From Variovorax sp. (lineage in GTDB: Bacteria > Pseudomonadota > Gammaproteobacteria > Burkholderiales > Burkholderiaceae_C): a stretch of 64,000 nt of DNA. This document shows positions 1-62,123 of this stretch, one piece after another. The first letter of the stretch is position 1. Each line of letters begins with the position of its first letter. A program made the translations under genes and the position numbers. Location: contig JANMDU010000058.1 of assembly GCA_031376455.1 (NCBI GenBank), positions 45,388 through 109,387 on the forward strand, read 5' to 3'. The notes below the pieces were generated by a model. The model searched no databases. It saw only the letters and a list, made by a program, of their open reading frames with translations, and was not told the DNA's origin.

Positions 1-283
1 AGACAGCCACACCGCTTTTCTCTTCGACAAGATCAACTTCTTGATGGATGCCGTGGTCGGTTTCATCAACATCAACCAAAACAAGATCATCAAAATCTTC
101 TCCGTAGCCAGCGTTGCTTTGTTGCCGCCCACTTTGATCGCCAGCATTTACGGCATGAACATGCAAATCCCAGAAGTGCAAGCTCTAGGCGCATCCGCTT
201 ACCCATTCGTTGTGGCGCTGATGCTTTGCAGCGCGATTTTGCCGATGTGGTACTTTAGAAAGCGTGGCTGGCTCAAGGGCTAG
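1..283 (+). CDS. corA: Magnesium/cobalt transporter CorA, 3' fragment (gene starts before the window)
   Basis: C-terminal KINFLMDAVVGFININQNKIIKIFSV...PPTLIASIYGMN: CorA GMN motif plus final TM helix. Confidence 0.93.
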   Translation, partial: DSHTAFLFDKINFLMDAVVGFININQNKIIKIFSVASVALLPPTLIASIYGMNMQIPEVQALGASAYPFVVALMLCSAILPMWYFRKRGWLKG

Positions 284-348
284 TTTTTTAGGTCTTTTAG
301 GCAGTTAGCCGGCGTATTTATTGCGCAGAGTGCTATTAATTTTGGAGT
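280..348 (+). repeat. Family-1 ~68-bp element; left end overlaps the corA stop
   Basis: ggcagttagccggcgtatttattgcgcagagtgctattaattttggagt. Confidence 0.85.
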
Positions 349-380
349 ATTCGAAGAGTTTCTTTTTGGATGCAGCGGCT

Positions 381-454
381 GCGAGTTAGAGGCATTTCGC
401 CCGCCTTCATGGTGGAGTACCACAAATCAGTCGGGCGAAATGCCTCTAACTCGC
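381..454. repeat. 23-bp perfect inverted repeat with 28-nt spacer
   Basis: GCGAGTTAGAGGCATTTCGCCCG (381-403) / CGGGCGAAATGCCTCTAACTCGC (432-454). Confidence 0.9.
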
Positions 455-550
455 GGCCTGTCTGGTATGCAAAAAATCTTCGCGCGCCAATGATGGCAAA
501 TGCAAATCCTGTTTGCACACTGCGATCAAAACGCCGCCGAGCCAACCACC

Positions 551-699
551 GGCCTGTGGGAGCTGTATTCGGGCGGGCGATTTTTGCATCGCAGCGTTTG
601 AAAACGCGGCGCGTTTTCACTTCAACATTTCAGGCGACAGGTGTCGCCAAGCCCGCGAGAAGGAACCATGAGCCCGCCCGAATACGGCTCCCACAGGCC
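551..699. repeat. 28-bp inverted repeat (1 mismatch) enclosing two smaller hairpins; REP/REPIN-like
   Basis: GGCCTGTGGGAGCTGTATTCGGGCGGGC (551-578) / GCCCGCCCGAATACGGCTCCCACAGGCC (672-699). Confidence 0.88.
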
Positions 700-792
700 A
701 TGGAGCACCAACCATCTCAAACACATTTTTAAGCAAAACAGGCCGTGAGTCCAAGCATCACCTGCGCAGAGCGCTACGAAATAAATAGCGAA

Positions 793-2518: not shown

Positions 2519-4474
2519 TTGCAATGCATGCAGCAAACTTTCCCTCAATTGCTTCTTCAACATGCCGCCGAGCGCCCGGATGCATCGGCTATGCGCGAAA
2601 AAGAATACGGCATTTGGCAAAGCCTGTCGTGGCGCAATCTGGCCAGGATGGTGGAAAGCGTTGCTTGCGGCCTGCACCAAGCAGGCTTGAAGCGTGGTGA
2701 ACACATCGTCGTCATTGGCAGCAATCGCCCGCGCCTGTATGCCAGCATGTTGGCCGCGCAATCTCTAGGCGCGATTCCTGTCCCGTTGTATCAAGATTCT
2801 GCTGCTGCGGAATGCGTTTTCCCCATCACCAATGCCGAGATTCGCTTTGGTATTGTGGAAGATCAAGAGCAAGTCGATAAACTGCTCGAAGTCCAAGAGA
2901 GTTGCCCGCTTCTCACGCATATTTGGTTTGACGATCCGCGTGGCCTACGCAATTACAACGATGCTGGTTTGGCTTCGCTGGATGCGTTGATTGCAGCAGG
3001 CGAGAAATTTGCATCCGCAAACCCAAGTTTTTTTAAAACCGAAGCTCTCGTCGCCCAGCCGCATGATGTGGCTGCTATGTTTTATACGTCTGGCACGACC
3101 GGCAACCCCAAAGGCGTGGTACACACGCATCTCTCGCTGCTTGATCGCAGCGCGGCTGGCGCGAAATTCGACAATTTAAGTTGCCAAGAAAATGTGTTGG
3201 CCTACATGCCGCCCGCATGGATCGGGCAAAACATTTTCAGCTATTCGCAATGGCTCGTTTGCGGCTACACCGTCAACTGCCCTGAGAGCGCCGCCACGGT
3301 GACGATTGACCTCAAAGAAATCGGGCCAACCTATTATTTTGCCCCACCGCGAGTGTTCGAAGGCTTGCTTACCAGCGTGATGATTCGCATGGAAGATGCG
3401 GGTGCGATCAAGCGAGTGATTTTCAAAACCTTCATGGATGTCGCCAAAAAAGTCGGCCCTGCCAAGATGGATGGGCAATCGATTGGTCTCGCAAGCAGCA
3501 TCATGTATGCGCTAGGCAACTTCTTTGTTTACAGCCCGCTGCGAAACAATTTGGGCATGAGCCGCGTTCGCGTGGCCTACACCGCAGGCGAGGCCATTGG
3601 CCCTGATCTCTTCACGTTTTACCGCTCGATTGGCATCAACTTGAAGCAGCTCTACGGCTCAACGGAGACAGCTGTGTTCGTTTGCTTGCAGCCTGATAAC
3701 GCCGTGCGTGCGGATACGGTAGGCGTACCGATTGAAGGCGTGGAAATCAAGGTCGATGACAACGGCGAAATTTTGGTGAAATCACCCGGTTTGCTCAAAG
3801 AGTATTTTAAAAATCCTGCGGCGACCGCTGAAGTAAAAACAGCCGACGGTTGGTATCGCACGAGCGATGCCGGCTTTATTGATGCCAGCGGCCAGCTCAA
3901 AATTATTGACCGCGTGAAAGACGTGGGCCGCATCAAGGGTGGCGCGAATGATGGCGCGATGTTTGCGCCGAAGTATGTCGAAAATAAACTCAAGTTTTTC
4001 CAATACATCAAAGAAGCTGTGGCTTATGGCGATGCACGCAGCCAAGTGTGCGTGATCCTCAATATCGACATGAATGCGGTGGGCAACTGGGCCGAGCGGC
4101 GCAACCTGCCTTATGCGGGCTACACCGATCTCGCACAAAAAGATGAGACGTACAAGCTGATCCGCGAATGTGTGGAATCCGTCAACGCTGATCTCTCACG
4201 CGACACGCTATTGGCAGGCAGCCAAATCAGCCGCTTCCTGGTGCTGCACAAAGAGCTCGATGCCGATGACGGTGAATTGACGCGCACCAATAAAGTCCGC
4301 CGAGGTTTTATTGGCGATAAATACCAACCATTGATTGATGCTTTGTACAGCGGCAAATCGGAGCAATTTATTGAGACGGTGGTGAAGTTTGAAGATGGCA
4401 GGAGCGGGAAGGTGAGCGCGACGTTGAAGATTTCCGATGCGAAGACTTTTGCTACTTTGGCCAAGGCTGCCTGA
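2519..4474 (+). CDS. Long-chain acyl-CoA ligase (AMP-binding); start may be 2528
   Basis: YTSGTTGNPKG, YGSTE and TSDAG adenylation motifs. Confidence 0.92.
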   Translation: MQCMQQTFPQLLLQHAAERPDASAMREKEYGIWQSLSWRNLARMVESVACGLHQAGLKRGEHIVVIGSNRPRLYASMLAAQSLGAIPVPLYQDSAAAECVFPITNAEIRFGIVEDQEQVDKLLEVQESCPLLTHIWFDDPRGLRNYNDAGLASLDALIAAGEKFASANPSFFKTEALVAQPHDVAAMFYTSGTTGNPKGVVHTHLSLLDRSAAGAKFDNLSCQENVLAYMPPAWIGQNIFSYSQWLVCGYTVNCPESAATVTIDLKEIGPTYYFAPPRVFEGLLTSVMIRMEDAGAIKRVIFKTFMDVAKKVGPAKMDGQSIGLASSIMYALGNFFVYSPLRNNLGMSRVRVAYTAGEAIGPDLFTFYRSIGINLKQLYGSTETAVFVCLQPDNAVRADTVGVPIEGVEIKVDDNGEILVKSPGLLKEYFKNPAATAEVKTADGWYRTSDAGFIDASGQLKIIDRVKDVGRIKGGANDGAMFAPKYVENKLKFFQYIKEAVAYGDARSQVCVILNIDMNAVGNWAERRNLPYAGYTDLAQKDETYKLIRECVESVNADLSRDTLLAGSQISRFLVLHKELDADDGELTRTNKVRRGFIGDKYQPLIDALYSGKSEQFIETVVKFEDGRSGKVSATLKISDAKTFATLAKAA

Positions 4475-4490
4475 GATCGACCGACATGAA

Positions 4491-4590
4491 GAACACGGAA
4501 GTCACGAAAGTAGGACGGAAGACACAGAAAACGGGACGCATTTTTCGTGCCTTCCGTGAAGTTTCCGTGTTTTCCGTGTTTTCCGTGTTC
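4491..4590. repeat. Family-2 palindromic element (CACGGAA type)
   Basis: Ends GAACACGGAA / TTCCGTGTTC; ~10-nt internal units. Confidence 0.85.
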
Positions 4591-9071: not shown

Positions 9072-9920
9072 ATGACCACTCCCACAGCTGCTGAGGCAAG
9101 CAATATCGTCCTCAATGTCAACGGCATTGAGGTGATCTACAACCACGTGATCTTGGTGCTCAAGGGCGTGTCGCTGCAAGTGCCGCAGAGCTCGATTGTG
9201 GCGCTGCTCGGCGGCAATGGCGCGGGCAAGACGACGACCTTGCGCGCTGTATCTAACCTTCTCTCCGGCGAGCGAGGCGCAGTCACCAAGGGCAGCATTG
9301 AGCTGCGAGGCGAGCGCATTGAAAATCTCACGCCGGCGGATTTGGTCAAGCGCGGCGTGGTGCAGGTGATGGAAGGGCGGCATTGTTTTGCTCACCTCAC
9401 GATTGAAGAGAATTTGCTCACCGGCGCTTACACCGTGAAAAACAAAGCGCAGATTGCCGCAAATTTGGAGAAGGTCTACAACTACTTTCCGCGCTTGAAG
9501 ACGCGCCGCACTAGCCAAGCGGCCTACACCTCTGGCGGCGAGCAACAAATGTGTGCGATTGGCCGCGCGCTGATGGCCAATCCAACGATGGTGCTTCTCG
9601 ATGAGCCATCGATGGGTCTGGCGCCGCAGATCGTGGAAGAGGTGTTCAACATCGTGAAAGATTTGAACCAAAAAGAAAAGACGACTTTTCTTCTTGCCGA
9701 GCAAAACACCAACATGGCACTGCGCTACTCGGATTACGGCTACATCTTGGAATCCGGCCGCATCGTGATGGACGGTAAAGCTGCCGATCTCGCGTCGAAT
9801 GAAGATGTGAAAGAGTTCTACCTGGGTGTGGGCAAATCGGCTGATGGCGAAGAAGCTGGTAGCCGCAAGAGCTTCAAAGATGGCAAGAGCTACAAGCGCA
9901 GGAAGCGTTGGTTGGCGTAG
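9072..9920 (+). CDS. ABC transporter ATP-binding protein, LivF-like
   Basis: GGNGAGKTT, SGGEQQM, LLDEPSMGLAP. Confidence 0.93.
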   Translation: MTTPTAAEASNIVLNVNGIEVIYNHVILVLKGVSLQVPQSSIVALLGGNGAGKTTTLRAVSNLLSGERGAVTKGSIELRGERIENLTPADLVKRGVVQVMEGRHCFAHLTIEENLLTGAYTVKNKAQIAANLEKVYNYFPRLKTRRTSQAAYTSGGEQQMCAIGRALMANPTMVLLDEPSMGLAPQIVEEVFNIVKDLNQKEKTTFLLAEQNTNMALRYSDYGYILESGRIVMDGKAADLASNEDVKEFYLGVGKSADGEEAGSRKSFKDGKSYKRRKRWLA

Positions 9921-9932: not shown

Positions 9933-10000
9933 AAGATTTTTAAACGAAATGAGTAGTTAGCCGGCGTATCTGCTGCGCAAATTGCTATTAAATTTATAGT
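9933..10000 (+). repeat. Family-1 element, intergenic
   Basis: gtagttagccggcgtatctgctgcgcaaattgctattaaatttatagt. Confidence 0.85.
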
Positions 10001-10027
10001 GAATAAGATGATCGCAGGAGTGATGCA

Positions 10028-11308
10028 ATGACGGACTTTTTTGACGCACTGGAGGCGCGAAGCTCCATGGAGCGCGAAGCTGCACTCATGGCCGCGCTGC
10101 ATACACAAATTGCACATGCGCAAAAGCACACTGCTGCTTTCGCTGAGATTTTGAAGGGCGTGGATGCTGCTGCAATCACCAGTCGCACGGCGCTCGCCAA
10201 GCTGCCGGTGACGCGCAAAACGCAATTGCAAGAACGCCAAAAAGCAGCGCACTCTGCAGGCAGTGATGTGTTTGGCGGCTTCTCTAGCCTCATACGCAAG
10301 AGCGGCTCTGGCAAGGATTCAGGCATGGGACGTATCTTTTCCAGCCCTGGCCCGATCTACGAGCCCGAAGGAAAGAGCGCAGACTATTGGCGCGCAGGCC
10401 GCGCCGTCTTCGCTGCGGGCTTTCGTGCAGGCGATCTGGCGCACAATGCATTTAGCTACCACATGACGCCTGGCGCCTACATGATGGAGAGCGGCGCACA
10501 CGCGGTGGGTTGCACTGTTTTCCCCGCTGGCACAGGGCAAACGGAGCAGCAATTGCAAGCCATGGCTGAGCTGCAACCTGATGGCTATTTAGGCACGCCG
10601 AGTTTCCTCAAAATCTTAGTGGAAAAAGCCCATGAAGCGAATCAAAAATTAAGCCTCAAAAAAGGCTTGGTGAGCGGCGAGGCCTTCCCTCCCAGCTTGC
10701 GCGATTGGTTCACTGAGCGCGATATGCATATTTACCAGTGCTACGCCACAGCTGATCTCGGCTTGATTGCTTACGAGACTGCAGCCAGAGAAGGCTTGAT
10801 CCTCGATGAAGGCGTGATTGTGGAAATCGTGCGCCCAGGCACGGGCGATGTGGTGCCGGAAGGCGAAGTGGGCGAATTGGTCGTGACGTCGCTCAATCCC
10901 ATCTACCCGCTGATTCGTTTCGGCACCGGCGATTTATCCGCTGTGCTGCCCGGCACTTGTCCCACGGGCCGCACGAATACACGCATCAAAGGCTGGATGG
11001 GGCGCGCCGATCAAACCACCAAAATTCGCGGCATGTTTGTGCATCCGGCTCAGGTGGCCGAAGTCGTCAAGCGTTTCCCAGAAATCACGAGAGCCCGCCT
11101 TGTGGTCAGTGGCGAGATGGCCAATGATCAAATGCTGCTCAAAGTAGAAACAACCCATATAGGCAAGCTTGACAACACAGCTTTCCAAGAAAAAATCGCG
11201 CATGCACTGCGAGACGTTACTAAGCTTCGCAGCGATGTGCAGCTGCTACAAATCGGTAGCCTGCCCAACGACGGCAAGGTGATTGAGGATGTGCGGAGTT
11301 ATCAGTAG
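10028..11308 (+). CDS. Phenylacetate-CoA ligase family protein (PaaK-like)
   Basis: SSPGP, QCYATADLG, RFGTGD, GRAD motifs. Confidence 0.88.
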   Translation: MTDFFDALEARSSMEREAALMAALHTQIAHAQKHTAAFAEILKGVDAAAITSRTALAKLPVTRKTQLQERQKAAHSAGSDVFGGFSSLIRKSGSGKDSGMGRIFSSPGPIYEPEGKSADYWRAGRAVFAAGFRAGDLAHNAFSYHMTPGAYMMESGAHAVGCTVFPAGTGQTEQQLQAMAELQPDGYLGTPSFLKILVEKAHEANQKLSLKKGLVSGEAFPPSLRDWFTERDMHIYQCYATADLGLIAYETAAREGLILDEGVIVEIVRPGTGDVVPEGEVGELVVTSLNPIYPLIRFGTGDLSAVLPGTCPTGRTNTRIKGWMGRADQTTKIRGMFVHPAQVAEVVKRFPEITRARLVVSGEMANDQMLLKVETTHIGKLDNTAFQEKIAHALRDVTKLRSDVQLLQIGSLPNDGKVIEDVRSYQ

Positions 11309-11310
11309 TT

Positions 11311-11379
11311 GCTACTGATTTAATAGCGCTTTGCGCAGTGAATACGCCGGCAAACAGCCGAAAAGGCTTAAAAAATCAG
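11311..11379 (-). repeat. Family-1 element between convergent genes; overlaps the rhodanese stop
   Basis: Reverse complement: ggctgtttgccggcgtattcactgcgcaaagcgctattaaatcagtagc. Confidence 0.88.
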
Positions 11380-11921
11380 TTCAGAGCCATCCTGACGGGC
11401 GAATCACGCTCTAGCAACGCGCTCGTACGCACGCGGCTGCCGGCCATGCGAGAAGAGCTTGCAGGCGCATCAAAGGAAACGAGATACTGCGGTACGCGTG
11501 GGCGAGATACAGTCTCTGTCGTCAGTCCATGCCCGCGCAGAGTCCATTCTTGTACGCCGCCAACCAGCCAAAGGACGCGACCCGAAGTGACCACAGCGAG
11601 GCGCTCCCACAAAGCCTTCGCGTTCGCATCGCCTGCATCGCCCATCACGAGCACGGTGCGCGAGCTGTCAATGCCAGCGTTTGCTAGCAAAGCAGCCAAG
11701 TTTTGCAAAGGCAATGACGCGGCATCGGCGGGAAGCGATGCTGCCTGCGCTAAGTGACCTAGGGCAAACGCATCAGCGCCGCGCACATCCACCACATACG
11801 CGCCTTGCGCCACAGCGCTTTGCGCATCATCAGCAGACACGGCAGACTGCTGGCCAGCGTGAACCGGCGCGATCAGCAAAAATAAAAGAAAAGCAGCCCA
11901 GATCAAGCGAATATTTTTCAT
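11376..11921 (-). CDS. Exported rhodanese-like domain protein
   Basis: Signal peptide; VVDVRGADAFALGHL and LVGGVQEW rhodanese patterns. Confidence 0.75.
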   Translation of the reverse strand: MKNIRLIWAAFLLFLLIAPVHAGQQSAVSADDAQSAVAQGAYVVDVRGADAFALGHLAQAASLPADAASLPLQNLAALLANAGIDSSRTVLVMGDAGDANAKALWERLAVVTSGRVLWLVGGVQEWTLRGHGLTTETVSRPRVPQYLVSFDAPASSSRMAGSRVRTSALLERDSPVRMALN

Positions 11922-12128
11922 AAGAAAACAGACTTTAGAGGCAGGGCGACATGCCGTCCAATACAGAGTTGTCAGATGCTCATGGCTTAAAGATATAAAG
12001 CGATAAGCCCATGATTCATATGGGATTTCGGGTAAGTCCTAGGGCTTGAAGAGTGGTTAACACGTAGCCCAAATAGCGTTTTGCCGCGTTAATATGTTGC
12101 AAGTCTTTTTTATTTCTTGGAGAAACCT

Positions 12129-13130
12129 ATGACTCTGTTTAATCGCCGCCTTACCCTCGTCGCAGCTTGCGCGGCTGCTATGGCAGCCGCCATGCCCGCA
12201 ACTGCGCAAGATTTCCCGATCAAAGACAAGCCGATCACCATCGTGGTGCCGTTTGCAGCGGGCGGCCCGACCGATCGCGTCGCACGCGATTTGGCTTTTT
12301 CACTGGCGAAGCCTTTGGGTGCGACCGTGGTGGTCGACAACGCCGCTGGCGGCCCTGGCGGCTTGATTGGTGCGAGCAAAGTGGCCAAAGGCACGCCCGA
12401 TGGCCACATGCTACTCGTGCATCACATCTCGATGGGCGTCTTTCCATCGCTCGTGCGCAATTTGCCATTCAACGTGCAAACAGATTTTGAATATTTGGGC
12501 ATGATTAACGAAGTGCCCATGACTTTGATTGGCCGCACCAGCTTGCCCGCCAACAATTTTGCCGAGCTACGCACATGGGCCAATGCCAACAAAGGTAAGA
12601 TTAATTTGGCTAACGCTGGCATCGCCTCTGCATCGCATCTGTGCGGCATGCTCATTCAAACCGCCCTCGGGGTGGACATGACAACCGTGCCCTACAAAGG
12701 CACAGCGCCAGCGATGAATGATTTGCTGGGCGGCCAAGTGGATTTGATGTGTGATCAAACCACCAACACCTCTGGGCAAATTGAAGGCAAGAAAGTCAAA
12801 GCGTTCGGCGTGACGACCGCTAAGCGCTTGACTACGCCTGCTCTGAAAGACTTGCCAACGCTGCAAGAAGCCGGTTTGAAGGATTTCCAAGTCGGCATTT
12901 GGCATGGCCTGTATGCACCCAAAGGCACTCCGCCTGCCGTGCAGAAGAAAATCAACGATGCTTTGCAGATGGCTCTAAAAGATCCTGAGTTCATCAAAAA
13001 GCAAGAAGCACTTGGCGCGGTGATCTTCACAGACAAGCGCGTGGAAATGGCGGATCACAAGCGCTTTGTGGCCAGTGAAATTGCCAAATGGGCGCCAGTG
13101 ATCAAAGCCTCTGGTGTTTATGCAGACTAA
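12129..13130 (+). CDS. Bug/TctC tripartite tricarboxylate transporter substrate-binding protein
   Basis: [24 protein letters not shown]; GGAG SD before ATG 12129. Confidence 0.93.
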   Translation: MTLFNRRLTLVAACAAAMAAAMPATAQDFPIKDKPITIVVPFAAGGPTDRVARDLAFSLAKPLGATVVVDNAAGGPGGLIGASKVAKGTPDGHMLLVHHISMGVFPSLVRNLPFNVQTDFEYLGMINEVPMTLIGRTSLPANNFAELRTWANANKGKINLANAGIASASHLCGMLIQTALGVDMTTVPYKGTAPAMNDLLGGQVDLMCDQTTNTSGQIEGKKVKAFGVTTAKRLTTPALKDLPTLQEAGLKDFQVGIWHGLYAPKGTPPAVQKKINDALQMALKDPEFIKKQEALGAVIFTDKRVEMADHKRFVASEIAKWAPVIKASGVYAD

Positions 13131-13155
13131 TGCCTGCTGAATAGCGTTCATCATC

Positions 13156-13184
13156 AAAAGCCACCTCAGTCAGGTGGCTTTTTT
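13156..13184 (+). terminator. Rho-independent terminator
   Basis: AAAAGCCACCT-cagtc-AGGTGGCTTTTTT downstream of the Bug gene. Confidence 0.8.
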
Positions 13185-13345
13185 CATGGGCGGCGCGGGT
13201 GTTCACCGATGCGCGTGCGATTTGGCTGCGTAATACTTTGCAGCATGCCTACGCTGCGTCTTATCGATTCGATCACTGAATTATCTTTACAGGATGTGGG
13301 CAGCACATTGCTTAGTGACGATCACAAACACATCAGAGATTTATC

Positions 13346-14398
13346 ATGACACCAATTTTCTCATCATTTTTTAAGCAAAAGAGGCCTTTTGCCGGCATAT
13401 ATACTGCGTGGAATGCTACTATTTTCATAGCAGTTATTATGGCACTACAACTCGGCCTATCAATTACTGCCTTTGCGCAAGCGTGGCCCAGCAAGCCAGT
13501 GCGCATCGTTGTGCCCTTCGCAGCGGGCGGCACGACCGATATCTTGGCGCGAGCGATTGCGCCTGAATTACAAAGAGCTTTTGGGCAAGCCTTCGTCGTC
13601 GAAAACCGCGCTGGAGCGGGGGGCAATGTGGGCGCGGAGCTTGTCGCAAAGAGCAATGATGGCCACACGATCCTCATGGGCACGGTAGGAACGCACGGCA
13701 TCAACAAAGCACTTTATCCCAGCTTGCCCTTCGATCCTGTCAAAGATTTTTCTCCAATCACTGTGGTGGCCTATGTGCCCAATGTGATGGTGATGAATGC
13801 AGAGAAAGCGCGCACTTTGAATATCAACTCAGTACAAGATTTCATCAGGTACGCCAAAGCCAACCCCGGTAAGCTGAATATGGCCTCCAGCGGCAACGGC
13901 ACCTCGATTCACTTGGCTGGCGAGCTGTTCAAAAGCATGGGCGATGTGTTCATGGTGCATTTCCCGTATCGCGGCTCAGGCCCTGCCCTGCTGGATTTGA
14001 TGGGCGGCAGCATGGATTTGATGTTTGACAATTTGCCTTCCGCTTTGCCGCAGATCAAAGCAGGAAAATTGAAAGCCTTGGCTGTGACGAGCAGCGCTCG
14101 CTCGAGCGCTCTGCCCGATGCCCCCACGGTCGAACAAGCAGGTGGCGCGGCGATGAAGGGTTTTGAAGCCAGCAGTTGGTTTGGCTTGCTCGCGCCTTCA
14201 TCCATGCCGGCCGCTCAGGTGCAACGCTTGCAACAAGAAACCGCCAAGGCGCTGGATCGCGCTGAAGTCAAAGACAAACTCGTCGCCCAAGGCGCATTGC
14301 CCGGGGGAAATAGTCCCGCAGATTTTGCCAAACACATTGATGCAGAAATCGCCAAATGGGCGAAAGTAGTCAAGGCATCTGGCGCGAAGGTCGATTAA
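13346..14398 (+). CDS. Bug/TctC family substrate-binding protein
   Basis: [31 protein letters not shown]. Confidence 0.92.
13364..13431 (+). repeat. Family-1 element in the Bug N-terminus
   Basis: ggccttttgccggcatatatactgcgtggaatgctactattttcatagc. Confidence 0.75.
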
Positions 14399-25717: not shown

Positions 25718-25739
25718 TATGGGTTGAGTGCCAAAAAAT

Positions 25740-44813: not shown

Positions 44814-47800
44814 CTAGCAGAGCAGCCGCTTCAAATACTTCCCCGTATAACTCGCCTCACTCTGCGCCACCTGTTCCGGCGTGCCAACTGCAACCACTTG
44901 CCCGCCCCCCGAGCCGCCCTCAGGCCCCATGTCGATGAGCCAATCGGCGGTTTTGATCACGTCGAGGTTGTGTTCGATGATGACGATGGTGTTGCCTGCG
45001 TCTCGCAATTGATGGAGCACTTTCAAGAGCAATTCAATGTCTGCAAAGTGCAAGCCGGTGGTGGGTTCGTCCAAGATATAGAGCGTGCGGCCGGTGTCGC
45101 GTTTGCTGAGTTCGAGCGCGAGCTTGACGCGCTGGGCTTCGCCGCCGGAGAGCGTGGTGGCGCTTTGGCCGAGGCGGATGTAGCTCAATCCCACGTCGAG
45201 CAAAGTTTGCAGCTTGCGCGCAATCGTGGGCACCGTTTTAAAGAATTCGAAGGCATCGCCTACGGTGAGGTCAAGCATGGCCGCGATGTTTTTGCCTTTG
45301 TAGAGGACTTCCAAAGTCTCGCGGTTATAGCGCAAGCCTTTGCAGACATCGCAGGGCACATACACATCGGGCAAAAAGTGCATCTCCACTTTCACCACGC
45401 CATCGCCTTGGCAGGCTTCGCAGCGGCCACCGGCCACGTTAAAACTAAAGCGTCCTGCGCCGTAGCCGCGCTCTCGGGCGACGGGCATCTCAGCGAGCAA
45501 TTCTCTGATCGGCGTAAAGAGTCCGGTATACGTTGCTGGGTTGGAGCGCGGCGTGCGGCCAATCGGAGATTGATCGACGTTGATCACTTTGTCGAAATGC
45601 TCCAAGCCTTCCATCTCGGCATAAGGCGTGGGCTCATCGTGGCTGCGATAGAGGCTGCGCGAGACGGCTTTGTGCAGCGTGTCGTTGACCAGCGTCGATT
45701 TGCCTGAGCCAGAGACGCCGGTGACGCAGGTCATGAGGCCAACCGGAAAGTCAACGCTCACGTTTTTCAGATTGTTGCCCGTCGCGCCAATCAATCGGAG
45801 CAGCTGGAATTTCTCGTCTACCTTGATGGTGGGCTCTTTCTTCTTGTAAGTGCGCTCGGGGTAGCGAGATTTCGCAGCGTACACGACAGGCGCTTTGATC
45901 TGAAGCGGCAGCCAAGCGTGGCGTTTGCTTGGCACAGCGATTTGCCGCCGCCCGCTCATGAATTGCCCCGTGAGCGAGTCGGGCGCTTCTTCGATTTGCT
46001 TGGCCGTGCCCTGCGCAATGATGCGCCCGCCATGAATGCCTGCGCCCGGGCCAATGTCCACCACATAATCGGCCGCGCGAATCATGTCTTCATCATGCTC
46101 CACCACGATCACGCTGTTGCCCAAATTGCGCAAATGCTTCAGTGTGCTGATGAGGCGATCATTGTCGCGCTGATGCAAGCCAATGCTCGGCTCATCGAGC
46201 ACATACATCACGCCCGTCAGTCCGCTGCCGATTTGCGAGGCGAGGCGAATGCGCTGCGATTCGCCGCCCGATAAAGTCTCTGCGCTGCGCGAGAGGCTGA
46301 GATAACTCAAGCCCACATCGTTTAAGAATTTCAGTCGCGAAGCAATTTCTTTGATCACCTTGCCAGCGATCTCTGCTTTCGCGCCTGTCATCTTCAAGCT
46401 CTCAAAATAGCGCTGTGCTTCAATCAAAGTTGCGCTACCGATTTGGCTGATAGTCTTTGATTGCGATGCATCCTTTGAGTCAACCAGCCGCACATTGCGC
46501 GCTTCGCGCTTCAAGCGCGTGCCTTCGCAAGCCGTGCAAGGCTGCGTATGCCGATAGCGCGCTAAATCTTCTCGCACAAGGCTCGATTCCGTCTCCCGGT
46601 AGCGCCGCTCCATGTTGTGGATGATGCCCTCAAACGGATGCTTCTTCTTGACTTTTTTGCCCACAGACTCACCGCTTTCCATGGTGTAGTTGAAGGCAAT
46701 ATCTTCTTCGCCGCTGCCCTGCAAAATCACGCTCTGCACGTGCTCTGGCAACTCCTCAAACGCTTTTTCCACATCAAATTTATAGTGCTTCGCCAGCGAT
46801 TCGATTAAGGCAAAGTAATAGCCATTGCGCCGATCCCAGCCTTTGATTGCGCCGCTGGCCAACGACAAAGATGGAAAGGCCACGATGCGAGATGGATCAA
46901 AAAACTCCATCATCCCAATACCGTCACACGTCTCGCAAGCGCCCATGGGCGAGTTAAAAGAAAACAATCTTGGCTCTAGCTCGCCAATGGTGAAGGCGCA
47001 GACCGGGCAAGCAAATTTTGCGTTGAACCAATGCTCACTTGTCTTCTTGCCTACTTTTGTGGCTGATTTTTCAAGTGTTTTAGCCACTTCGCCGGCGTGT
47101 TTATTGCGCAAAACGCTATCATTTTCATCATCCATATTCACGGCAATCGCTCTGCCTTCAGCCAAGCGCAGCGCTGCTTCAAAGCTTTCAGCGAGCCGCT
47201 GTTTCATCTCCGGCTTGACTTTGAGTCGATCAATCACCACATCAATATCGTGCTTCTCGGTTTTCTTCAGCTTAGGCAGTTCATTGAATTCAAACATCTG
47301 CCCGTTGATCCGAAAGCGCACATACCCTCGCGCCTGCATATCCTCAAACACATCTGCGAACTCGCCCTTCTTCTCCCGCGCAATCGGCGCCAGAATCATC
47401 ACCTTTGCATCCTGCGGCCAAGCTAATACTGCATCCACCATTTGCGAAACCGTTTGCGATTGCAGCGGCAGCAAGTGATCCGGGCAATGCGGTGTGCCCG
47501 CGCGAGCAAACAGCAAGCGCAAGTAGTCGTGGATCTCGGTCACGGTGCCCACAGTCGAGCGCGGGTTGTGGCTCGTGGCCTTCTGCTCAATCGAAATCGC
47601 AGGCGACAAGCCTTCAATCACATCCACATCCGGCTTATCCATCAGCTGCAAAAACTGCCGCGCATAGGTCGACAAACTCTCCACATACCGCCGCTGCCCC
47701 TCGGCATACAGCGTGTCAAATGCCAGCGAAGATTTGCCCGAGCCCGACAAGCCCGTGATCACGACAAGTTGATTGCGCGGAATATCCAAATCCACATTTT

Positions 47801-47897
47801 TCAAATTGTGCGTTCGCGCCCCACGAATACTGATGTGGGTGTGCAGGGCTTGGCCGAGGTACGTGCCGTTTTGTGTGCTGTCAGCAGAGGAATTCAC
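44814..47897 (-). CDS. uvrA: Excinuclease ABC subunit A
   Basis: GARTHNLKN, two Walker A motifs ([16 protein letters not shown]), zinc fingers, LSGGEAQR. Confidence 0.98.
47064..47131 (+). repeat. Family-1 element, in-frame in uvrA
   Basis: gatttttcaagtgttttagccacttcgccggcgtgtttattgcgcaaaacgctatcattttcat. Confidence 0.85.
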
Positions 47898-48718: not shown

Positions 48719-48811
48719 GAACACGGAGAGCACGGAAGTTGCACGAAAGACACCAAAAAAGAGAGATGCTTTTTCCGTGCTTTTCGTGAAATATTTGTGA
48801 CTTCCGTGTTC
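48719..48811. repeat. Family-2 palindromic element (CACGGAA type)
   Basis: gaacacggagagcacggaagttgcacgaaag...ttccgtgcttttcgtg...cttccgtgttc. Confidence 0.85.
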
Positions 48812-48834
48812 TTTATGTTTGAGCACAATAAGCC

Positions 48835-49719
48835 TTGAATACCCGCCTAGTCCTTTATCTCGATCTGATTCGTTGGAATCGCCCGGCTGGCTGGCTGCTG
48901 CTGCTGTGGCCGACGCTCTCTGCTTTATGGATTGCAGCCGGCGGCTTCCCAGGATGGCATTTGATCATCGTGTTTACTTTAGGCACGATCCTTATGCGTA
49001 GCGCTGGCTGTTGTGTCAACGATGTTGCCGACGCAGATTTTGACAAGCATGTGAAGCGCACCGCTGGGCGACCTGTCACCAGTGGCAAAGTAAGCAAAAA
49101 AGAAGCGCTACTGCTTGGCGCTTGCCTATCTCTGCTGGCTTTCGGCTTCGTGCTCACCACGAATTTGCTCACGGTGCTGTATTCGTTTGCCGCGCTAGCG
49201 ATCACGCTCGCGTATCCCTTCGCCAAGCGCTTCGTTGCGATGCCGCAAGCCGTGCTCGGCGTCGCATTCAGCTTCGGGATTCCGATGGCCTTCGCTGCAG
49301 TATCGGGCGGCAACTCGCTAAACGAGTTGCAAGGCGGTGTATCCAAACTCGCTTGGATTTTGCTGCTTGGTAATCTCTTCTGGGTGCTTGCCTACGACAC
49401 GGAATACGCCATGGTGGATCGGGATGATGATCTGCGCATCGGCATGAAAACATCGGCCATCACGCTCGGGCGCTTTGATGTAGCCGCTATCATGCTTTTT
49501 TATGGTGTTTATATGCTTTTTTGGCTGATAGCCGGCATAGAATCTGCGCAAAATGCTATCAAATTAGTAGTATTGATCAGCATGAGTGGGCAAATCTTTT
49601 GGCATTGGCAGCTCATCCGCACGCGCTCGCGCGAGGGCTGTTTCAAAGCGTTTCGACTCAATCACTGGCTCGGTTTGACGCTGTTTATCGGCATCGTTGC
49701 AGCCAGCTTGGTCAAGTAA
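48835..49719 (+). CDS. ubiA: 4-hydroxybenzoate octaprenyltransferase
   Basis: [32 protein letters not shown]. Confidence 0.95.
49504..49571 (+). repeat. Family-1 element, in-frame in ubiA
   Basis: ttttttggctgatagccggcatagaatctgcgcaaaatgctatcaaattagtagt. Confidence 0.82.
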
Positions 49720-55444: not shown

Positions 55445-56830
55445 ATGACAAGCTTTCATTCGCTAGGCCATTCACCACTCAATCGCCGCAGCTTGATCGC
55501 GCAAGCCATGGCGCTTGGCGCAAGCGGCTTGATGAGTGGGCAAGTGTTGGCCCAGCGCGCACCGAGCGGCTCGCCAGCAGGCGCGTTGAATCAAGGCCGG
55601 ATGGTGGTTGTCTTCCTGCGCGGCGCGTATGACGGGCTCTCAGCGCTTGTGCCCTATGCGGATAAAAATTACTACGCCATGCGTCCGAATATCGCCATCG
55701 CCGCGCCCGATGGCTCGCGCGAGACGGCGCTCAGACTCGATGATCGTTTTGCCATGCATCCCGCACTCTCGCCCCTCATGCCGCTGTGGAATGAGGGCTC
55801 ACTCGGCGTGATTGCCAGCGCTGGCTTGGCTACGCCGAATCGCTCGCATTTTGATGCGCAGTATTTGATGGAGATTGGTTTGCAAGAGAAGAGCAGCACG
55901 CCGATGGGCTGGCTCAACAAGCTCTCAGCCAGCAGCGCAGGCTCAGCACTTGGCGTGGGCGAGGCCAATCCGGCGATTCTCTCAGGCCAAGCCGCTGTCA
56001 AGCTGATCCCGCGTGGGGATGCCGCTGCGCGCACCGGCGTGTTGGCCAACGAGAAACAACGCAGCGCCTTGATGGATTTGTATGCGGGCAATGACACGGT
56101 CAGCGAAGCATTTCGCCAAGGCGCGGGCAGCCGTATGCAGACCTCGCAAGAGCTCATCAATGAGCGCAATATGCGCACCGCGAATGCCAACGCCAATGCG
56201 GAAATAGACGGGATGGCCAATACAAACAATCGGCGCATGCTTGACAAACATGGCACGCCGCAAACCACTGCGGCACAAGCGGCACAAATGCAAGCTGCCA
56301 GCAATGGCGCGGCAGACCCTGTCGGCCTCGCTCTTGATGCTCAACACCTCGCCACGCTTATGCGCAACGATCCCAAACTGCGCCTTGGCTTCCTATCCGC
56401 CGGCGGCTGGGATACGCATGCCAATCAGGGCAATGCGGTGGGTGGCTTGGCCAATAATTTAGGCAATCTCGCACGCGGTCTGGCGCAATTGCGTAGCGAA
56501 TTCGATCAAAGTGGCGATCTCATCATCGTCATGAGCGAATTTGGCCGCACGAGCGCAGAAAACGGCACAAAGGGCACCGATCACGGCTTTGGCAACGCGC
56601 TCTGGCTGATCGGCAACCGTGTGCAAGGCGGCAAAGTGCATGGACTGTGGACGGGGCTTGCTCGTGGCAACTTAAACGACAACCGCGATCTGCCTGCACA
56701 TCACGATTACCGCGCCGTACTCGCGCAGGCTCTGCGCAGCACGTTTGCATTGCCTGATTCCCAGTTGCAAACGCTGCTGCCCGGTAGCAATTGGGATCAG
56801 CGCCTAGATGGATTATTTCGTAAAACTTAA
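55445..56830 (+). CDS. DUF1501 family protein, Tat-like leader
   Basis: NRRSLI leader; FLRGAYDGL, SHFDAQ, GGWDTH, SEFGRT, GTDHG. Confidence 0.92.
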   Translation: MTSFHSLGHSPLNRRSLIAQAMALGASGLMSGQVLAQRAPSGSPAGALNQGRMVVVFLRGAYDGLSALVPYADKNYYAMRPNIAIAAPDGSRETALRLDDRFAMHPALSPLMPLWNEGSLGVIASAGLATPNRSHFDAQYLMEIGLQEKSSTPMGWLNKLSASSAGSALGVGEANPAILSGQAAVKLIPRGDAAARTGVLANEKQRSALMDLYAGNDTVSEAFRQGAGSRMQTSQELINERNMRTANANANAEIDGMANTNNRRMLDKHGTPQTTAAQAAQMQAASNGAADPVGLALDAQHLATLMRNDPKLRLGFLSAGGWDTHANQGNAVGGLANNLGNLARGLAQLRSEFDQSGDLIIVMSEFGRTSAENGTKGTDHGFGNALWLIGNRVQGGKVHGLWTGLARGNLNDNRDLPAHHDYRAVLAQALRSTFALPDSQLQTLLPGSNWDQRLDGLFRKT

Positions 56831-59346: not shown

Positions 59347-59369
59347 ACTGTGCGCTATCAATGTTTTGT

Positions 59370-60284
59370 TTACGCGTTGCTTGTGCCGGCTTCGCCTCGT
59401 AGGCGCAGCGCGATCTCATACAGCGCATTGCGTGGCTCGCCTGTAATGTCCGCAGCTATTCTGACGGCGGTTTTGGTAGGTAGCTCAGGCAGCAGCAGTT
59501 TTAAGATGCGTTCACCTTCTCCTGCGATAGATTCAGAGGCTGCTTGCGGATGAATCGCCAAAGCAAATTCGCCGATGCAGCGATGCTTGTCTTGTGCGAG
59601 CCATGCAGCAAAAGTATTTGAAGGCATCGTGGCGAGCTGCTCAAATTGTTTGGTCAGCTCGCGGCCCACGGTGATAGGGCGCGCTCCCAATGCCGAAAGA
59701 GCTGTCGCTAGGGCTTCAATGCGATGCGGTGCTTCCAGCAACACAATGGCACGCGGCTCTGTGCTCAAGCGCTGAATCTGCGCTTCTCTCTCTTTGGCTT
59801 TGGACGATAAGAAGCCTTCAAAAACAAAACCACCTGCATCGCCAACAAGCCCCGCTGCGCTGATCAGCGCCGTGATGCTGCTCGCGCCGGGCAGCGGCAT
59901 CACGCGATAGCCTGCTGTATGCACAGCCGCAGCTAGGCGCGCACCGGGATCGCTCACAGCGGGCGTGCCCGCATCGCTGACGTAGGCCACGCGTTCACCA
60001 GCCTGCAGCTTGGCAATAACGCCTGCAGCCGCTTCGCGCTCGTTATGCTCATGCAGCGCCAGCAGTGGTTTTTGGATGCCATAAATGCCCAGCATGCCTT
60101 GCGTGTGACGCGTGTCTTCGCAGGCTACTTTGTCGACCATCCCCAACACATACAAAGCGCGCAGCGAAATATCAGCGAGATTGCCAATCGGTGTGGCAAT
60201 CATGTACAGCGTGCTTGCTGGATACAGCTGCGCACCAGCTGCAGAATGCGCAGCGGCCAAGGCGGGGGAAAAATCGGCTTTCAA
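59370..60284 (-). CDS. rsmI: 16S rRNA (cytidine1402-2'-O)-methyltransferase; probable TTG start 60284 (ORF open to 60311)
   Basis: ATPIGNLADIS.RA, CEDTR, SDAGTPAVSDPG, RELTK. Confidence 0.95.
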   Translation of the reverse strand: MKADFSPALAAAHSAAGAQLYPASTLYMIATPIGNLADISLRALYVLGMVDKVACEDTRHTQGMLGIYGIQKPLLALHEHNEREAAAGVIAKLQAGERVAYVSDAGTPAVSDPGARLAAAVHTAGYRVMPLPGASSITALISAAGLVGDAGGFVFEGFLSSKAKEREAQIQRLSTEPRAIVLLEAPHRIEALATALSALGARPITVGRELTKQFEQLATMPSNTFAAWLAQDKHRCIGEFALAIHPQAASESIAGEGERILKLLLPELPTKTAVRIAADITGEPRNALYEIALRLRGEAGTSNA

Positions 60285-60311
60285 GGTCTGCTTTCGCGGC
60301 ACAATCACCAC

Positions 60312-60755
60312 ATGGAATTATTCAAGAGCATAGCGGCAAAAGGGATGACAACAGCCGCCGCTGCCTCGTCTGCTTTTCCTGCACGATTGACCACGAAAGC
60401 TGTGGGAGACAGCGGCGAAGAACTGGCATTGCGCTTCCTGCTCAAAAATGGTTTGCAGCTCATTGCGCGCAATTTCAAAACGCCGGGACGCGGCGGCGGC
60501 GAGGTAGATCTGATCATGCGCGCAGCCGATAGCACGCTGGTCTTCGTGGAAGTGCGCCAGCGCAAGAGCGCAAGCCATGGCGGCGCAGCGGCCAGTATCG
60601 GCACACAGAAGAAGCGGCGCATTATCTATGCCGCGCAGCATTACATCAGCCATCTTGTGCGCATGCCGCCTTGCCGCTTTGATGTGATCGCGCTCCATGG
60701 CGAGGGCGCAGAGGCGAAGATAGACTGGCTGGTCGCAGCTTTTGATGCATCCTGA
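60312..60755 (+). CDS. yraN: YraN/UPF0102 family protein; start uncertain
   Basis: G..GE..A, RN, GEVDLI, FVEVR, RFDVI; synteny. Confidence 0.9.
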   Translation: MELFKSIAAKGMTTAAAASSAFPARLTTKAVGDSGEELALRFLLKNGLQLIARNFKTPGRGGGEVDLIMRAADSTLVFVEVRQRKSASHGGAAASIGTQKKRRIIYAAQHYISHLVRMPPCRFDVIALHGEGAEAKIDWLVAAFDAS

Positions 60756-60849
60756 TGCAAATATGGCGTAAAAATCTCAGTTTGCACCCACAAATACAAG
60801 AAACTCTGCTATCAATTTAGTATCATTGCGGCAAGACCAATTGCCTACC

Positions 60850-61455
60850 ATGCTCGAACAACGCATTGAAAAAAATTTCATCGACAGCGCCGACTTAACC
60901 TACCAAGCTGCACTGGTGTTAGGCAAACCGATCGCACAGGCCACCGAAGCGCTGCTCGCCTGCGTCACCAATGGTGGCAAGGTGCTGATCTGTGGCAATG
61001 GCGGTTCGGCTGCGCAGGCGCAGCACTTTGCCGCTGCGTTCGTTGGGTGCTATGAGCGCGAGCGCCCTGAACTTGCCGCGATTGCTTTGACGAGCGACAG
61101 CGCCATCTTCAATGCGATGAGCCATGACAATGGGTTCGAGCTGATTTTTGCGAGGCAACTGCGCGCCCTCGGTACGGGGGGCGATGTGCTCGTGGCACTC
61201 TCGGCCAGCGGTAATTGCGCCAATGTGATCAAAGCCATCGAAGTGGCGCAAGAGCGCGAGATGATCGTGATCGCGCTCACGGGAAGTCAAGACGGGAAAA
61301 TAGGCGGCAAGATCGGTGCGATGCTATCTGAGACGGATGTGCATATTTGTGTGCCGCATGCTCGCGCATCGCGGATTCAAGAGGTTCATCTGCTCGCGCT
61401 GCATTGCTTGTGCGACGGAGTAGATGCCATGTTGTTGGGTGATCAGGAGAATTGA
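60850..61455 (+). CDS. SIS-domain protein, GmhA/DiaA family
   Basis: CGNGGSA, IQEVH; lies between yraN and BON like E. coli diaA. Confidence 0.88.
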   Translation: MLEQRIEKNFIDSADLTYQAALVLGKPIAQATEALLACVTNGGKVLICGNGGSAAQAQHFAAAFVGCYERERPELAAIALTSDSAIFNAMSHDNGFELIFARQLRALGTGGDVLVALSASGNCANVIKAIEVAQEREMIVIALTGSQDGKIGGKIGAMLSETDVHICVPHARASRIQEVHLLALHCLCDGVDAMLLGDQEN

Positions 61456-62123
61456 TGAACACTATGAATTTAATAGCACGTCGCGCAGTATTAATGCCGG
61501 CTACTGCTCTAGTAGGATCATATTTATTGGCCGGCTGTGTACCTTTGGTGATAGGTGGCGCAGTCGTGGGTGGCACGCTTGTTGCCACAGATCGTCGAAC
61601 TTCCGGCGCGCAGTTGGAAGATGAGGGCATTGAGTTGCGCAGCACCAACCGCTTGCGTGAAGCTTTCATCGAACGGGTGCATATCAATGCCAACAGCTAC
61701 AACCGCCAAGTGTTGCTGACAGGCGAAGTACCCACAGAAGCCGATAAAGTGCGGGCGCAAGAGATCGTGAGTCGCGTGGAAAATGTACGCAGCATCGTCA
61801 ATGAACTCGCCGTCTTGGGCAACACATCCCTGACTTCGCGCTCCTCCGATTCGCTCGTCACGGGCCGCGTGAAAGCAGGCTTTGTGGACGCGAAAGATTT
61901 ATATGCCAACGCCTTTAAAGTCGTCACCGAGCGCGGCACGACATATCTGATGGGCCGCGTCTCTCAGCGAGAAGCCAACCGCGCTACTGATATCGCCCGT
62001 ACCACGCCCGGCGTACAACGCGTCGTGCGCGTGCTGGAGATCATCAGCGAAGAAGAGTTGCAGCGCGCGCTCCCGCAACCCGCTAAGCCAAGCACTTCTG
62101 CGCCCACGAATCCCTCCAATTAA
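61452..62123 (+). CDS. Dual-BON-domain lipoprotein (YraP/DolP-like)
   Basis: Lipobox LAGC; DRRTSG...D, VLLTGEV, YLMG.V. Confidence 0.9.
   Translation: MMNTMNLIARRAVLMPATALVGSYLLAGCVPLVIGGAVVGGTLVATDRRTSGAQLEDEGIELRSTNRLREAFIERVHINANSYNRQVLLTGEVPTEADKVRAQEIVSRVENVRSIVNELAVLGNTSLTSRSSDSLVTGRVKAGFVDAKDLYANAFKVVTERGTTYLMGRVSQREANRATDIARTTPGVQRVVRVLEIISEEELQRALPQPAKPSTSAPTNPSN
61461..61527 (-). repeat. Family-1 element, in-frame in the BON lipoprotein signal peptide
   Basis: actatgaatttaatagcacgtcgcgcagtattaatgccggctactgc. Confidence 0.75.

Follow-up and report, generated by a model that had tools for sequence, protein, structure and literature searches.

A stretch of 64,000 nt from Variovorax sp., a freshwater member of the Comamonadaceae (GenBank assembly GCA_031376455.1, contig JANMDU010000058.1, positions 45,388 to 109,387; C138:45388-109387 in our contig numbering), referred to here as the window, is interspersed with copies of a 65-nt sequence motif that recurs throughout the genome, between genes as well as within them. 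On the best reading of the evidence, this motif behaves like a recognition signal, with sites that stay put and a sequence that changes in concert across species, and not like a jumping element. With regard to its nature, we tentatively favor a lineage-specific double-stranded-DNA signal that is kept by a molecular drive of the uptake-signal type and is recognized by a putative protein reader.

The motif was detected with an nhmmer model that was seeded with 13 copies from the window and then iterated over the whole subject genome (3.40 Mb in 160 contigs), which resulted in 65 positions with the consensus TTTTTAAGCAAAATAGGCCTTTAGCCGGCATAGAATCTGCGCAGAGTGCTATTAAATTAATAGCA. At E<1e-3, the model retrieves 943 copies, versus none in block-shuffled DNA, corresponding to a density of one copy per 3.6 kb and to ~2% of the genome. 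The repeat, which was first described in an earlier note made from the letters of the window, is thus real and does not consist of shuffle-like profile matches. Within the window, a 23-nt core pattern is matched six times, compared with zero matches in 100 shuffles, and a repeat search revealed direct and inverted families of 8–10 copies each. The nhmmer model and the repeat search together identify 16 full copies and one right-half remnant (Table 1), where about 18 copies had been counted earlier. Most of the copies in the genome (906 of 943) are free of indels with respect to the 65-nt model. The motif contains a total of 61 bits of information, the conservation being very uneven: GCT at positions 48–50 is invariant (100%), and TGCG at 38–41 (96–99%), CCG at 25–27 (93–95%), A at 62 (99%) and G at 63 (96%) constitute further core positions, while the remaining ones are nearly free. 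In its layout, GC-rich boxes (TAGCCGGC, CTGCGC, GTGCTA and ATAGC) alternate with A/T tracts, where AAA can stand for TTT and vice versa (positions 11–13). The conserved span extends from about -1 to +68, and the signal is lost within 2–3 nt beyond positions 0 and 68.

Mutual information computed over the 906 copies peaks between neighboring positions, and not between potential pairing partners. The GCTA-N9-TAGC palindrome proposed in the earlier note does exist as a dyad, but its inner pairs display no compensatory change: C:G at positions 51:61 was observed 18 times versus 17.8 expected, and no covariation is found at the pair 52:60 either. Terminal inverted repeats are absent: between the first 20 nt and the last 20 nt in reverse complement, 5 of 20 bases agree. 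Target-site duplications, which had been suggested as a feature to look for, are absent as well, since direct repeats of at least 3 nt do not exceed the control at any offset and the flanks show only a marginal excess of dinucleotide repeats (e.g., 77 versus 41). The neighbor-type mutual information and the lack of dyad covariation, terminal inverted repeats and target-site duplications indicate that the constraint acts on the duplex and not on a folded strand. A hairpin of RNA or single-stranded DNA was consequently rejected, given that the mutual information does not fall on pairing partners and that the dyad pairs lack compensatory change. No Rfam family matches in the window at the gathering thresholds. 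The consensus was also compared by eye with the -35/-10 and -24/-12 elements, the spacings of which do not fit a promoter or a sigma-54 site, and, again as judged by eye, it does not fit an IHF site. No description of this 65-nt element was found in the literature searched.

The stability of the sites was analyzed by comparison with related genomes, numbered with the prefix G, most of which are metagenome bins. Detection in every genome started from the model of the subject genome, gene calls were obtained with a crude codon-usage model made for this analysis, and the comparisons covered ~20% of one outgroup genome from another genus (G016) and 30–80 kb per sister species. Syntenic blocks of the closest sister species share 72–88% DNA identity with the subject genome, and the flanks of the element about 49–57%. 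When anchored by their flanks, 32 of the 37 copies of G005 and G011 have a counterpart at the same place in the subject genome; three of the four exceptions inspected are weaker copies with an intact right half. The same is true for 52 of the 65 copies of G014, G001, G007, G010 and G009, giving a pooled retention of 84 of 102 (82%) at orthologous sites in sister species at ~80% DNA identity. This value is not circular because the copies were ascertained in one genome only. Across 30 orthologous pairs, all detected in both genomes with one model, the core positions are 0.90–1.00 identical, and the low-information positions ~0.56 identical, similar to the flanks (0.49–0.57). At these low-information positions, random pairs of copies reach 0.25–0.3. 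The identity of the low-information positions, far above that of random pairs, implies that the pairs are true orthologues in which the free positions drift at the local rate and the core is held. The copies are old, position-stable and constrained base by base, which does not correspond to neutral decay.

A comparison of the copies between lineages reveals distinct dialects of the motif. The form GCCGGC(A/G)T, found in ~80% of the copies of the subject genome, is common to this genome, G005, G011, G001 and G014; in G010, 14 of 18 copies contain GCCGTTAT instead, and G007 has GTTA in 7 of 17 copies, plus other mixed states. At nine of 13 orthologous loci, GTTA or CTTA of G010 corresponds to GGCA or GGCG of the subject genome. 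The orthologue of the copy at 9937, located at G010:18328, is likewise written in the G010 dialect (CCCGTTAT). G014 and G001 agree with the dialect of the subject genome at nearly all shared loci. A search with a GCCGNC... pattern had suggested a scarcity of copies in G003, G009 and G010 and their absence from other genera, but this was discarded as an artefact of the dialects; with nhmmer, normal copy densities are found in G010 and G007.

The outgroup genome G016 possesses its own 58-nt version of the motif (AGCAAAATTGGCCTCTAGCGCTTGTCGATCAAGCGCCAGCAGCTATTAATTTAATAGC), in which the overall length and the outer boxes are as in the subject genome and the center forms a clear dyad; two clear dyads are present in this dialect. 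This version has 109 copies in 725 kb, versus none in shuffled DNA. A copy in the G016 dialect occupies the orthologous place of 11 of 43 in-gene sites of the subject genome, and 16 of these 43 sites score above 10 bits in G016, compared with two in controls shifted by 400 nt. The orthologous G016 copies score far better with the model of G016 than with that of the subject genome (e.g., 39.6 versus 8.8 bits). The core pattern common to both dialects, TAGC-N13-GCGC-N5-GCTA-N9-TAGC, occurs in genomes of 57 of the 201 genera of the family and is matched as often as 241 times in a single genome, whereas its reversed control yields 0–1 matches per strand per genome; this pattern detects ~13% of the copies of the subject genome and misses other dialects. 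The occurrence of lineage-typical versions at the same locus excludes insertion followed by decay and requires concerted change. When the preferred sequence of a lineage shifts, hundreds of sites follow, also within genes, whose proteins must then tolerate the peptide that results.

Members of the repeat superfamily were also observed on plasmids. The gcuF/orfF cassette of the dfrA12-gcuF-aadA2 class 1 integron, annotated as encoding a DUF1010 protein, contains a copy in the TAGCCCTTG...CAAGCGC dialect, located at 2990–3053 of plasmid pCTX-M3 (NC_004464.2), and the same match is present in more than 1,700 plasmid records. With the G016 model, this copy scores 36.3 bits, above the median of genuine G016 copies. 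This points to a Comamonadaceae origin of the cassette. In the Comamonadaceae isolate Diaphorobacter sp. HDW4A, a full G016-type copy (53.2 bits) at 1502–1559 of the 242-kb plasmid replicon NZ_CP049911.1 overlaps the end of cobN, and weaker matches were found on Comamonas and Acidovorax replicons. The consensus of the subject genome has no match in the plasmid collection.

To place the copies with respect to genes, a copy was classified as internal when both of its 180-nt flanks are coding on the same strand and in the same frame, with no stop through the copy, according to a codon-usage model trained on long open reading frames (ORFs). The classifier is strict and misses the copies in uvrA and ubiA. 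Genome-wide, 203 copies are internal, 325 have no coding flank, and the rest lie at gene ends. As an independent check, copy-spanning ORF segments were searched with tblastn against 725 kb (~20%) of G016; 70 alignments cross a copy (~66 distinct sites), 43 of them with at least 40% identity (41 distinct copies). Scaled to the whole genome, the tblastn figure agrees with the classifier, and at least a fifth of the copies are inside genes. The earlier statements that the copies lie in frame inside genes, that genes read them in four reading frames, and that their similarity resides in the DNA and is not protein homology all hold. The internal copies comprise 84 in the sense stop-free frame (peptide NLKQKRPLAGVESAQSAIKSIAS), 79 in the antisense stop-free frame (peptide AINSIALRADSTPANGLKDLKN) and 40 in the other four frames, the two stop-free frames thus accounting for 80%. 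The motif is under-represented in coding DNA, yet present there, and its copies in genes are as strong as those outside: the median score is 43–45 bits and the core information 1.62–1.65 in genes, compared with 46.8 bits and 1.64 in intergenic DNA. Copies in genes are kept as well as the intergenic ones, and the constraint on the DNA overrides coding.

No orientation bias with respect to genes is apparent among the internal copies (99 sense and 104 antisense). Among gene-adjacent copies, the two orientations are balanced 5' of genes (105/100), and 3' of genes one of them is modestly preferred (81/59). Relative to the sign of the local GC skew, the counts are 111/89 and 107/122, an apparent slight lean, and a replication-oriented motif of the Chi or KOPS (FtsK-orienting polar sequence) type was rejected in view of these counts. 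The copies are single, not clustered, and more evenly spaced than random, with an index of dispersion of 0.73 for counts per 10 kb and 2.4% of the inter-copy gaps below 300 nt versus 8% expected; this evenness may in part be a simple consequence of the copies being preferentially intergenic. In the tenth of genomic windows with the most atypical composition, there are 1.37 copies per 10 kb, compared with 2.95 elsewhere. Two copy-free stretches lie outside the window analyzed here. One, of 30 kb (contig C126, 1–30000), encodes TrbI, a VirB11-type ATPase and a C5 DNA methylase, and is identified by these genes as a conjugative island; the other, of 20 kb (contig C39, 10001–30000), is a photosynthesis gene cluster (BchB-type, BchH and PucC).

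The gain of copies was followed in three genes of the window. In uvrA, protein and DNA alignments of 23 genomes reveal that ten genus members carry 18–28 extra residues exactly at the copy, whereas G010, G002, G012 and all outgroups have a short loop with no gain. At the DNA level, the gain amounts to 54 nt in five species, to 60–78 nt in four others and to 84 nt in the subject genome, its commonest size being shorter than the 65–68 nt of a full copy. From these alignments, the uvrA copy qualifies as a true in-frame gain. The situation in ubiA is different. The stretch from TSAITLG to CFKAF has a constant length of 204 nt, both in all 12 members of the genus and in outgroups that belong to other families of the order, and the copy that it contains is present in 11 of the 12 (E down to 2e-17 in that small search), with G009 showing no likeness there. 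The ~65-nt stretch has some 35 differences from the copy-free allele of G009. It is, however, doubtful that this allele represents the ancestral empty site, as G016 has a copy at the same place in its own dialect and loss in G009 is as likely. All genus members examined share the position of the acetoacetyl-CoA synthetase copy (DNA alignment, six species), and in G016 an own-dialect copy covers a homologous peptide of equal length (33.2 bits with the G016 model versus 10.5 with that of the subject genome); a difference of +4 residues in the alignment window corresponds to a 4-residue gap just upstream of the copy. Equal-length homologous peptides in element-free relatives, named in the earlier note as an observation that would refute its reading, are found at ubiA.

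Over the 70 copy-spanning alignments with G016, which are local alignments with a window of +/-8 residues and include some low-identity matches, the net length difference is continuous, from 0 (15 cases) to about +30 residues. Where G016 has no copy, the host protein is mostly 4–30 residues longer in the subject genome; where it has one, the difference is mostly 0–11 residues, with one outlier at 23. The varying net differences and the length-neutral ubiA site imply that copies can be gained with added length of no fixed size and that at least one arose without any length change.

The genes of the uvrA and acetoacetyl-CoA synthetase loci show further length variation. The UvrA of G007 has an extra insertion of 24 residues (HAPVRSDPVEGPVEVQAGSARTEY) about 30 residues before the motif site, which is present in no other genome. 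The acetoacetyl-CoA synthetase gene of the subject genome contains a second in-frame extra segment at 42786–42857 (..PFDELRTSQALGER..), where blastn alignments to G010, G001 and G009 break and the subject genome is ~55–60 nt longer; this segment seems to be another repeat type.

We infer that a sequence-specific reader exists and that the sites are kept by drive or by selection tied to it. Among the mechanisms of this kind, uptake-signal-type drive is the most likely single one because the whole signature matches the list of traits compiled for DNA uptake sequences. These comprise an origin in place by mutation and recombination instead of insertion, even spacing, equal orientations, under-representation in genes with presence there in biased frames, long-conserved sites, and scarcity in acquired DNA (PMC2817400), as well as dialects by lineage (PMC3630211). 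The DNA uptake sequences (DUS) of Neisseriaceae and the uptake signal sequences (USS) of Pasteurellaceae occur in hundreds to thousands of copies with equal orientations, as does the present motif. Even spacing, in-gene presence with frame preference, scarcity in acquired DNA, origin in place without length change, long-conserved sites and lineage dialects are all displayed by it as well. Under such a drive, DNA fragments bearing the motif would have an advantage in uptake or in some other form of transmission, and would recombine into the chromosome via flanking homology. Better-matching alleles would then spread at each locus, so that the motif follows whatever specificity the putative reader has. 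New sites may arise by two routes, in-place change without a change in length (ubiA) and short in-frame additions (uvrA, +54 nt).

Several points weigh against uptake-type drive. With its 65 nt and 61 bits, the motif exceeds DUS (10–12 nt) and USS (~30 nt) several-fold in length and information content, and it occurs at ~1 copy per 3.6 kb versus ~1 per kb. DUS and USS are defined by preferential uptake, a property that the present motif would have to share. We know of no sequence-specific uptake in Comamonadaceae, the literature searched having given none, and of no candidate receptor, and a pilin-type receptor for 65 bp would, to our knowledge, be unprecedented. Many in-gene copies, unlike DUS and USS, add 4–30 residues, and uvrA gained 54 nt at once, for which point mutation plus drive is insufficient without a copying step; none of the readings accounts for length-adding copies such as that of uvrA. 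Any host site that is old and under selection would likewise be evenly spaced and scarce in islands, and the core identities of the 30 pairs are favored toward intact cores by the use of one model in both genomes. The subject genome encodes ComEC, DprA and an HHH_3 protein, but competence genes are near-universal and their presence does not discriminate: an Escherichia coli control matches the same three families, so that these genes merely fail to refute uptake. A bolder form of the uptake reading is possible but doubtful, namely that Comamonadaceae have a third, independently evolved class of uptake or kin-recognition signal, of 65 bp and ~60 bits, that has genus and species dialects and a drive strong enough to overwrite coding sequence, among it that of signal peptides, membrane helices and a UvrA loop, and to carry the same substitutions through hundreds of loci upon a change of reader. 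In a variant of this proposal, the signal may be spread by an enzyme that rewrites sites from a template instead of by uptake.

The strongest alternative, although we consider it unlikely, is that the copies benefit the host by binding an architectural protein, whether nucleoid-associated, topoisomerase-type or other, that requires sites at more or less regular distances; purifying selection would maintain them, with the dialects reflecting co-evolution with the binding protein. The alternation of GC boxes with A/T tracts and the interchangeability of AAA and TTT suggest a shape read-out of bent or wrapped DNA, and the even spacing (dispersion 0.73), the lack of orientation bias, the base-by-base conservation at stable sites and the full strength of in-gene copies would all agree with such a function. 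Enterobacterial repetitive extragenic palindromic (REP) elements and bacterial interspersed mosaic elements (BIME) are, moreover, binding sites for gyrase, IHF and Pol I. Selection on each of ~940 sites would, nevertheless, have to override coding and, upon a change of dialect, push two substitutions through hundreds of loci, and selection of such strength is hard to conceive where the benefit of each site is tiny. No architectural protein is known to need a 61-bit site. The absence of the core pattern from 144 of 201 genera of the family also counts against this explanation, but is a weak point, given that the pattern misses other dialects. Of the readings offered in the earlier note, the alternative of a recombination or binding site fits best.

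A further explanation, which corresponds to the main reading of that note, appears improbable: a non-autonomous element, mobile after the manner of a MITE (miniature inverted-repeat transposable element), a REP or a Rickettsia palindromic element, would be inserted by a trans-acting enzyme and survive in genes where it is in frame. Part of the idea, that an element adds segments of ~20 residues to proteins, is borne out by the in-frame gain in uvrA, with its clean presence/absence pattern (+54 nt or more in ten species, none in three and in the outgroups), and by hosts that are usually 4–30 residues longer where the outgroup has no copy, but it does not extend to the length-neutral ubiA. The high copy number and the lineage-specific consensus are likewise compatible with mobility, as is the ssb-ubiA spacer, which holds the 65-nt motif in G005 and a palindrome of a second repeat family in the subject genome. 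On the other hand, a MITE has terminal inverted repeats, a target-site duplication and one fixed length difference between filled and empty sites, none of which applies to the motif: the terminal match is 5/20, no duplication of 3 nt or more is found, and the net length change is continuous from 0 to ~30 residues, with ubiA length-neutral against the whole order. In addition, 82% of the copies are orthologous at ~80% identity with fixed core bases, and insertion cannot produce the dialect changes seen at orthologous loci.

The earlier statement that no candidate mobilizing enzyme lies in the window holds. A single Y1 (Y1_Tnp) transposase gene, of the REP-associated tyrosine transposase (RAYT) type, was found outside the window (contig C79, 5354–6052). 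Its flanks carry AAATTAAATAGGGTCAGA repeats and not the 65-nt motif, and the Y1 family is not co-distributed with the motif: among genomes of the bacterial family, 14 of 16 that are motif-rich contain it, as do 13 of 16 that are motif-poor. The suggested RAYT link, with a gene flanked by or co-distributed with the element, was rejected on both counts. Around the Y1 gene (contig C79, 5270–6160), three tandem CAAATTAAATAGGGTCAGA units precede the gene and an inverted pair of them follows it; genome-wide, no more than a handful of copies of this small repeat exist.

The known repeat families that resemble the motif differ from it in essential respects. REP/BIME elements and the REPIN-RAYT system (PMC3733652, PMC8049555) are similar in being short, very abundant repeats with a species-specific consensus, long persistence and dyads, and the TAGC boxes of the motif recall their GTAG tag. 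REPs are, however, extragenic, whereas at least one fifth of the motif copies are in genes, and the copies are single and lack compensatory change in the dyad; a RAYT gene is flanked by and co-distributed with the repeat in REP/REPIN-RAYT systems, and the motif shows neither. The betaproteobacterial repeat element (BRE) occurs in Comamonadaceae genomes with some copies in coding sequences (Hot et al. 2011, PMC3110155). BRE is ~90 nt long with 69% G+C and often forms tandem arrays (PMC3110155), compared with 65 nt for the motif, and identity was rejected after direct comparison with the published Bordetella BRE sequences, which have no boxes in common with the consensus.

Rickettsia palindromic elements (RPE), reportedly described by Ogata et al. 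in 2000, were the analogy drawn in the earlier note. They are mentioned in PMC1779305. As in RPE, a dispersed repeat lies in frame in many unrelated housekeeping genes, in several frames. It adds residues without destroying the protein in uvrA (18 to 28) and probably at many other sites (4 to 30), but none in ubiA. The analogy fails in that RPE are treated as insertions that then decay, while the copies of the motif are position-stable and their core is constrained at orthologous sites across genera. Furthermore, some copies add no length (ubiA), dialects shift in place, and the motif is a poor palindrome.

Active rewriting, in which one site or a master template would serve as the source for other sites, through short-patch conversion or through single-strand annealing at the replication fork, could account without an uptake step for overwriting at constant length and for dialects that change in concert, as in the replacement of ~65 nt in ubiA (~35 differences from the G009 allele), the concerted changes at many loci and the outgroup peptides that are already motif-like at several sites (e.g., h364, h577, h287), as if seeding conversion; we regard it as the least probable of these explanations, because the exact stretches common to copies are at most ~10–16 nt, too short for RecA-type pairing, the low-information positions are inherited per locus and not homogenized, contrary to whole-copy overwriting, and G009 may simply have lost the ubiA copy that G016 has.

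The copies in the window are listed in Table 1. Their placement differs somewhat from that given in the earlier note, which had about 11 copies in frame within coding sequences and one wholly intergenic copy: four are internal to genes (20036, 43372, 47068 and 49508), four lie in N-terminal, export-signal-like coding regions (25521, 26645, 33889 and 61460), one at a C-terminus (35673), one at a gene start or immediately 5' to it (13368), and six in intergenic DNA or at gene ends (285, 726, 9937, 11310, 40937 and 56825). The four N-terminal copies can be read as export signals, provided that the assumed start codons are correct, and the copy at 13368 is probably upstream of the true start of its gene, to judge from the sequence.

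Table 1. Copies of the 65-nt motif in the window, with their nhmmer E-values, location and comparative data.
Positions	Strand	E-value	Location	Comparative and other data
285–349	+	1.3e-13	Intergenic; adjoins the stop codon of an ORF that ends at 283	
726–790	+	1.1e-6	Weak copy; intergenic, adjoins the end of minus-strand ORF 793–1653	
9937–10001	+	5.6e-14	Intergenic, between ORFs 9072–9920 and 10028–11308	
11310–11374	-	1.6e-15	Between convergent genes 10028–11308 (+) and 11376–11921 (-)	
13368–13432	+	2.2e-14	5' end of Bug/TctC-type gene 13346–14398	
20036–20100	-	3.6e-12	Inside acyl-CoA dehydrogenase gene 19500–20819, antisense stop-free frame	Both flanks coding in one frame; protein ~7 residues longer than best outgroup match (tblastn h367, 36% identity, possibly a paralogue)
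23049–23084	-		Right-half remnant (TGCGTAGAGTACTATCAAATTAGTAG)	Inverted match to 49541–49576, 83%; below nhmmer threshold
25521–25585	+	4.9e-10	N-terminal coding part of Bug protein 24616–25644 (-)	Encodes most of the predicted export signal, MQRRQLLS-ITTKSIALSAISLPATSAFSQQK-PIRLVVP; an outgroup Bug protein aligns across the copy (tblastn h613)
26645–26709	+	1.9e-9	Predicted export signal of Bug protein 25740–26741 (-)	
33889–33953	-	1.3e-8	N-terminal signal-like part of ORF 33857–34453	Orthologues in G005 and G007
35673–35737	-	1.1e-8	C-terminus and stop region of ORF 34450–35736	Orthologues in G005 and G007
40937–41001	-	2.7e-12	Between convergent genes 40018–40944 (+) and 41013–42008 (-)	Orthologue in G007
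43372–43436	+	1.1e-11	Inside acetoacetyl-CoA synthetase gene 42005–44149 (-)	
47068–47132	+	3.2e-9	Inside uvrA 44814–47897 (-), read in third frame	
49508–49572	+	1.7e-14	Inside ubiA 48835–49719 (+), sense stop-free frame, over membrane segment	
56825–56889	+	2.5e-10	Overlaps stop codon of ORF 55445–56830	
61460–61524	-	2.9e-10	Predicted signal peptide of BON-type lipoprotein 61452–62123, as far as lipobox LLAGC	

Other repeats are present in the window. The first copy is directly followed by a 39-nt inverted repeat at 377–458, the arms of which are 85% complementary and separated by 4 nt. Two tandem pairs of paralogous Bug/TctC-type binding-protein genes (12117–14398 and 24616–26741) show 70–82% DNA likeness in blocks, and the motif is found at the 5' ends of three of these four genes. 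A second, unrelated repeat family between genes consists of palindromes of short units of the TTCCGTG and CTTTTGCG types, positioned at 4484–4531, 18071–18111, 48770–48818 and 62188–62228, with further positions at 19542–19581, 22474–22513, 22583–22618 and 25629–25664.

If the reading of the motif as a recognition signal holds, a family that is common in fresh water, soil and glacier-fed streams would possess a long signal in its DNA, one that shapes ~2% of the genome and, with it, segments of many proteins. It would constitute a natural system in which drive or constraint at the DNA level is set against protein coding, and in which the DNA wins, and it would show hundreds of sites changing jointly when their reader changes. 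The dialects provide ready-made provenance markers, for example for the gcuF cassette on more than 1,700 enterobacterial plasmids, and gene callers and homology tools should expect segments of 20 residues that are dictated by the motif. Whether sequence-specific DNA uptake is confined to two families would become testable in a cultured isolate.

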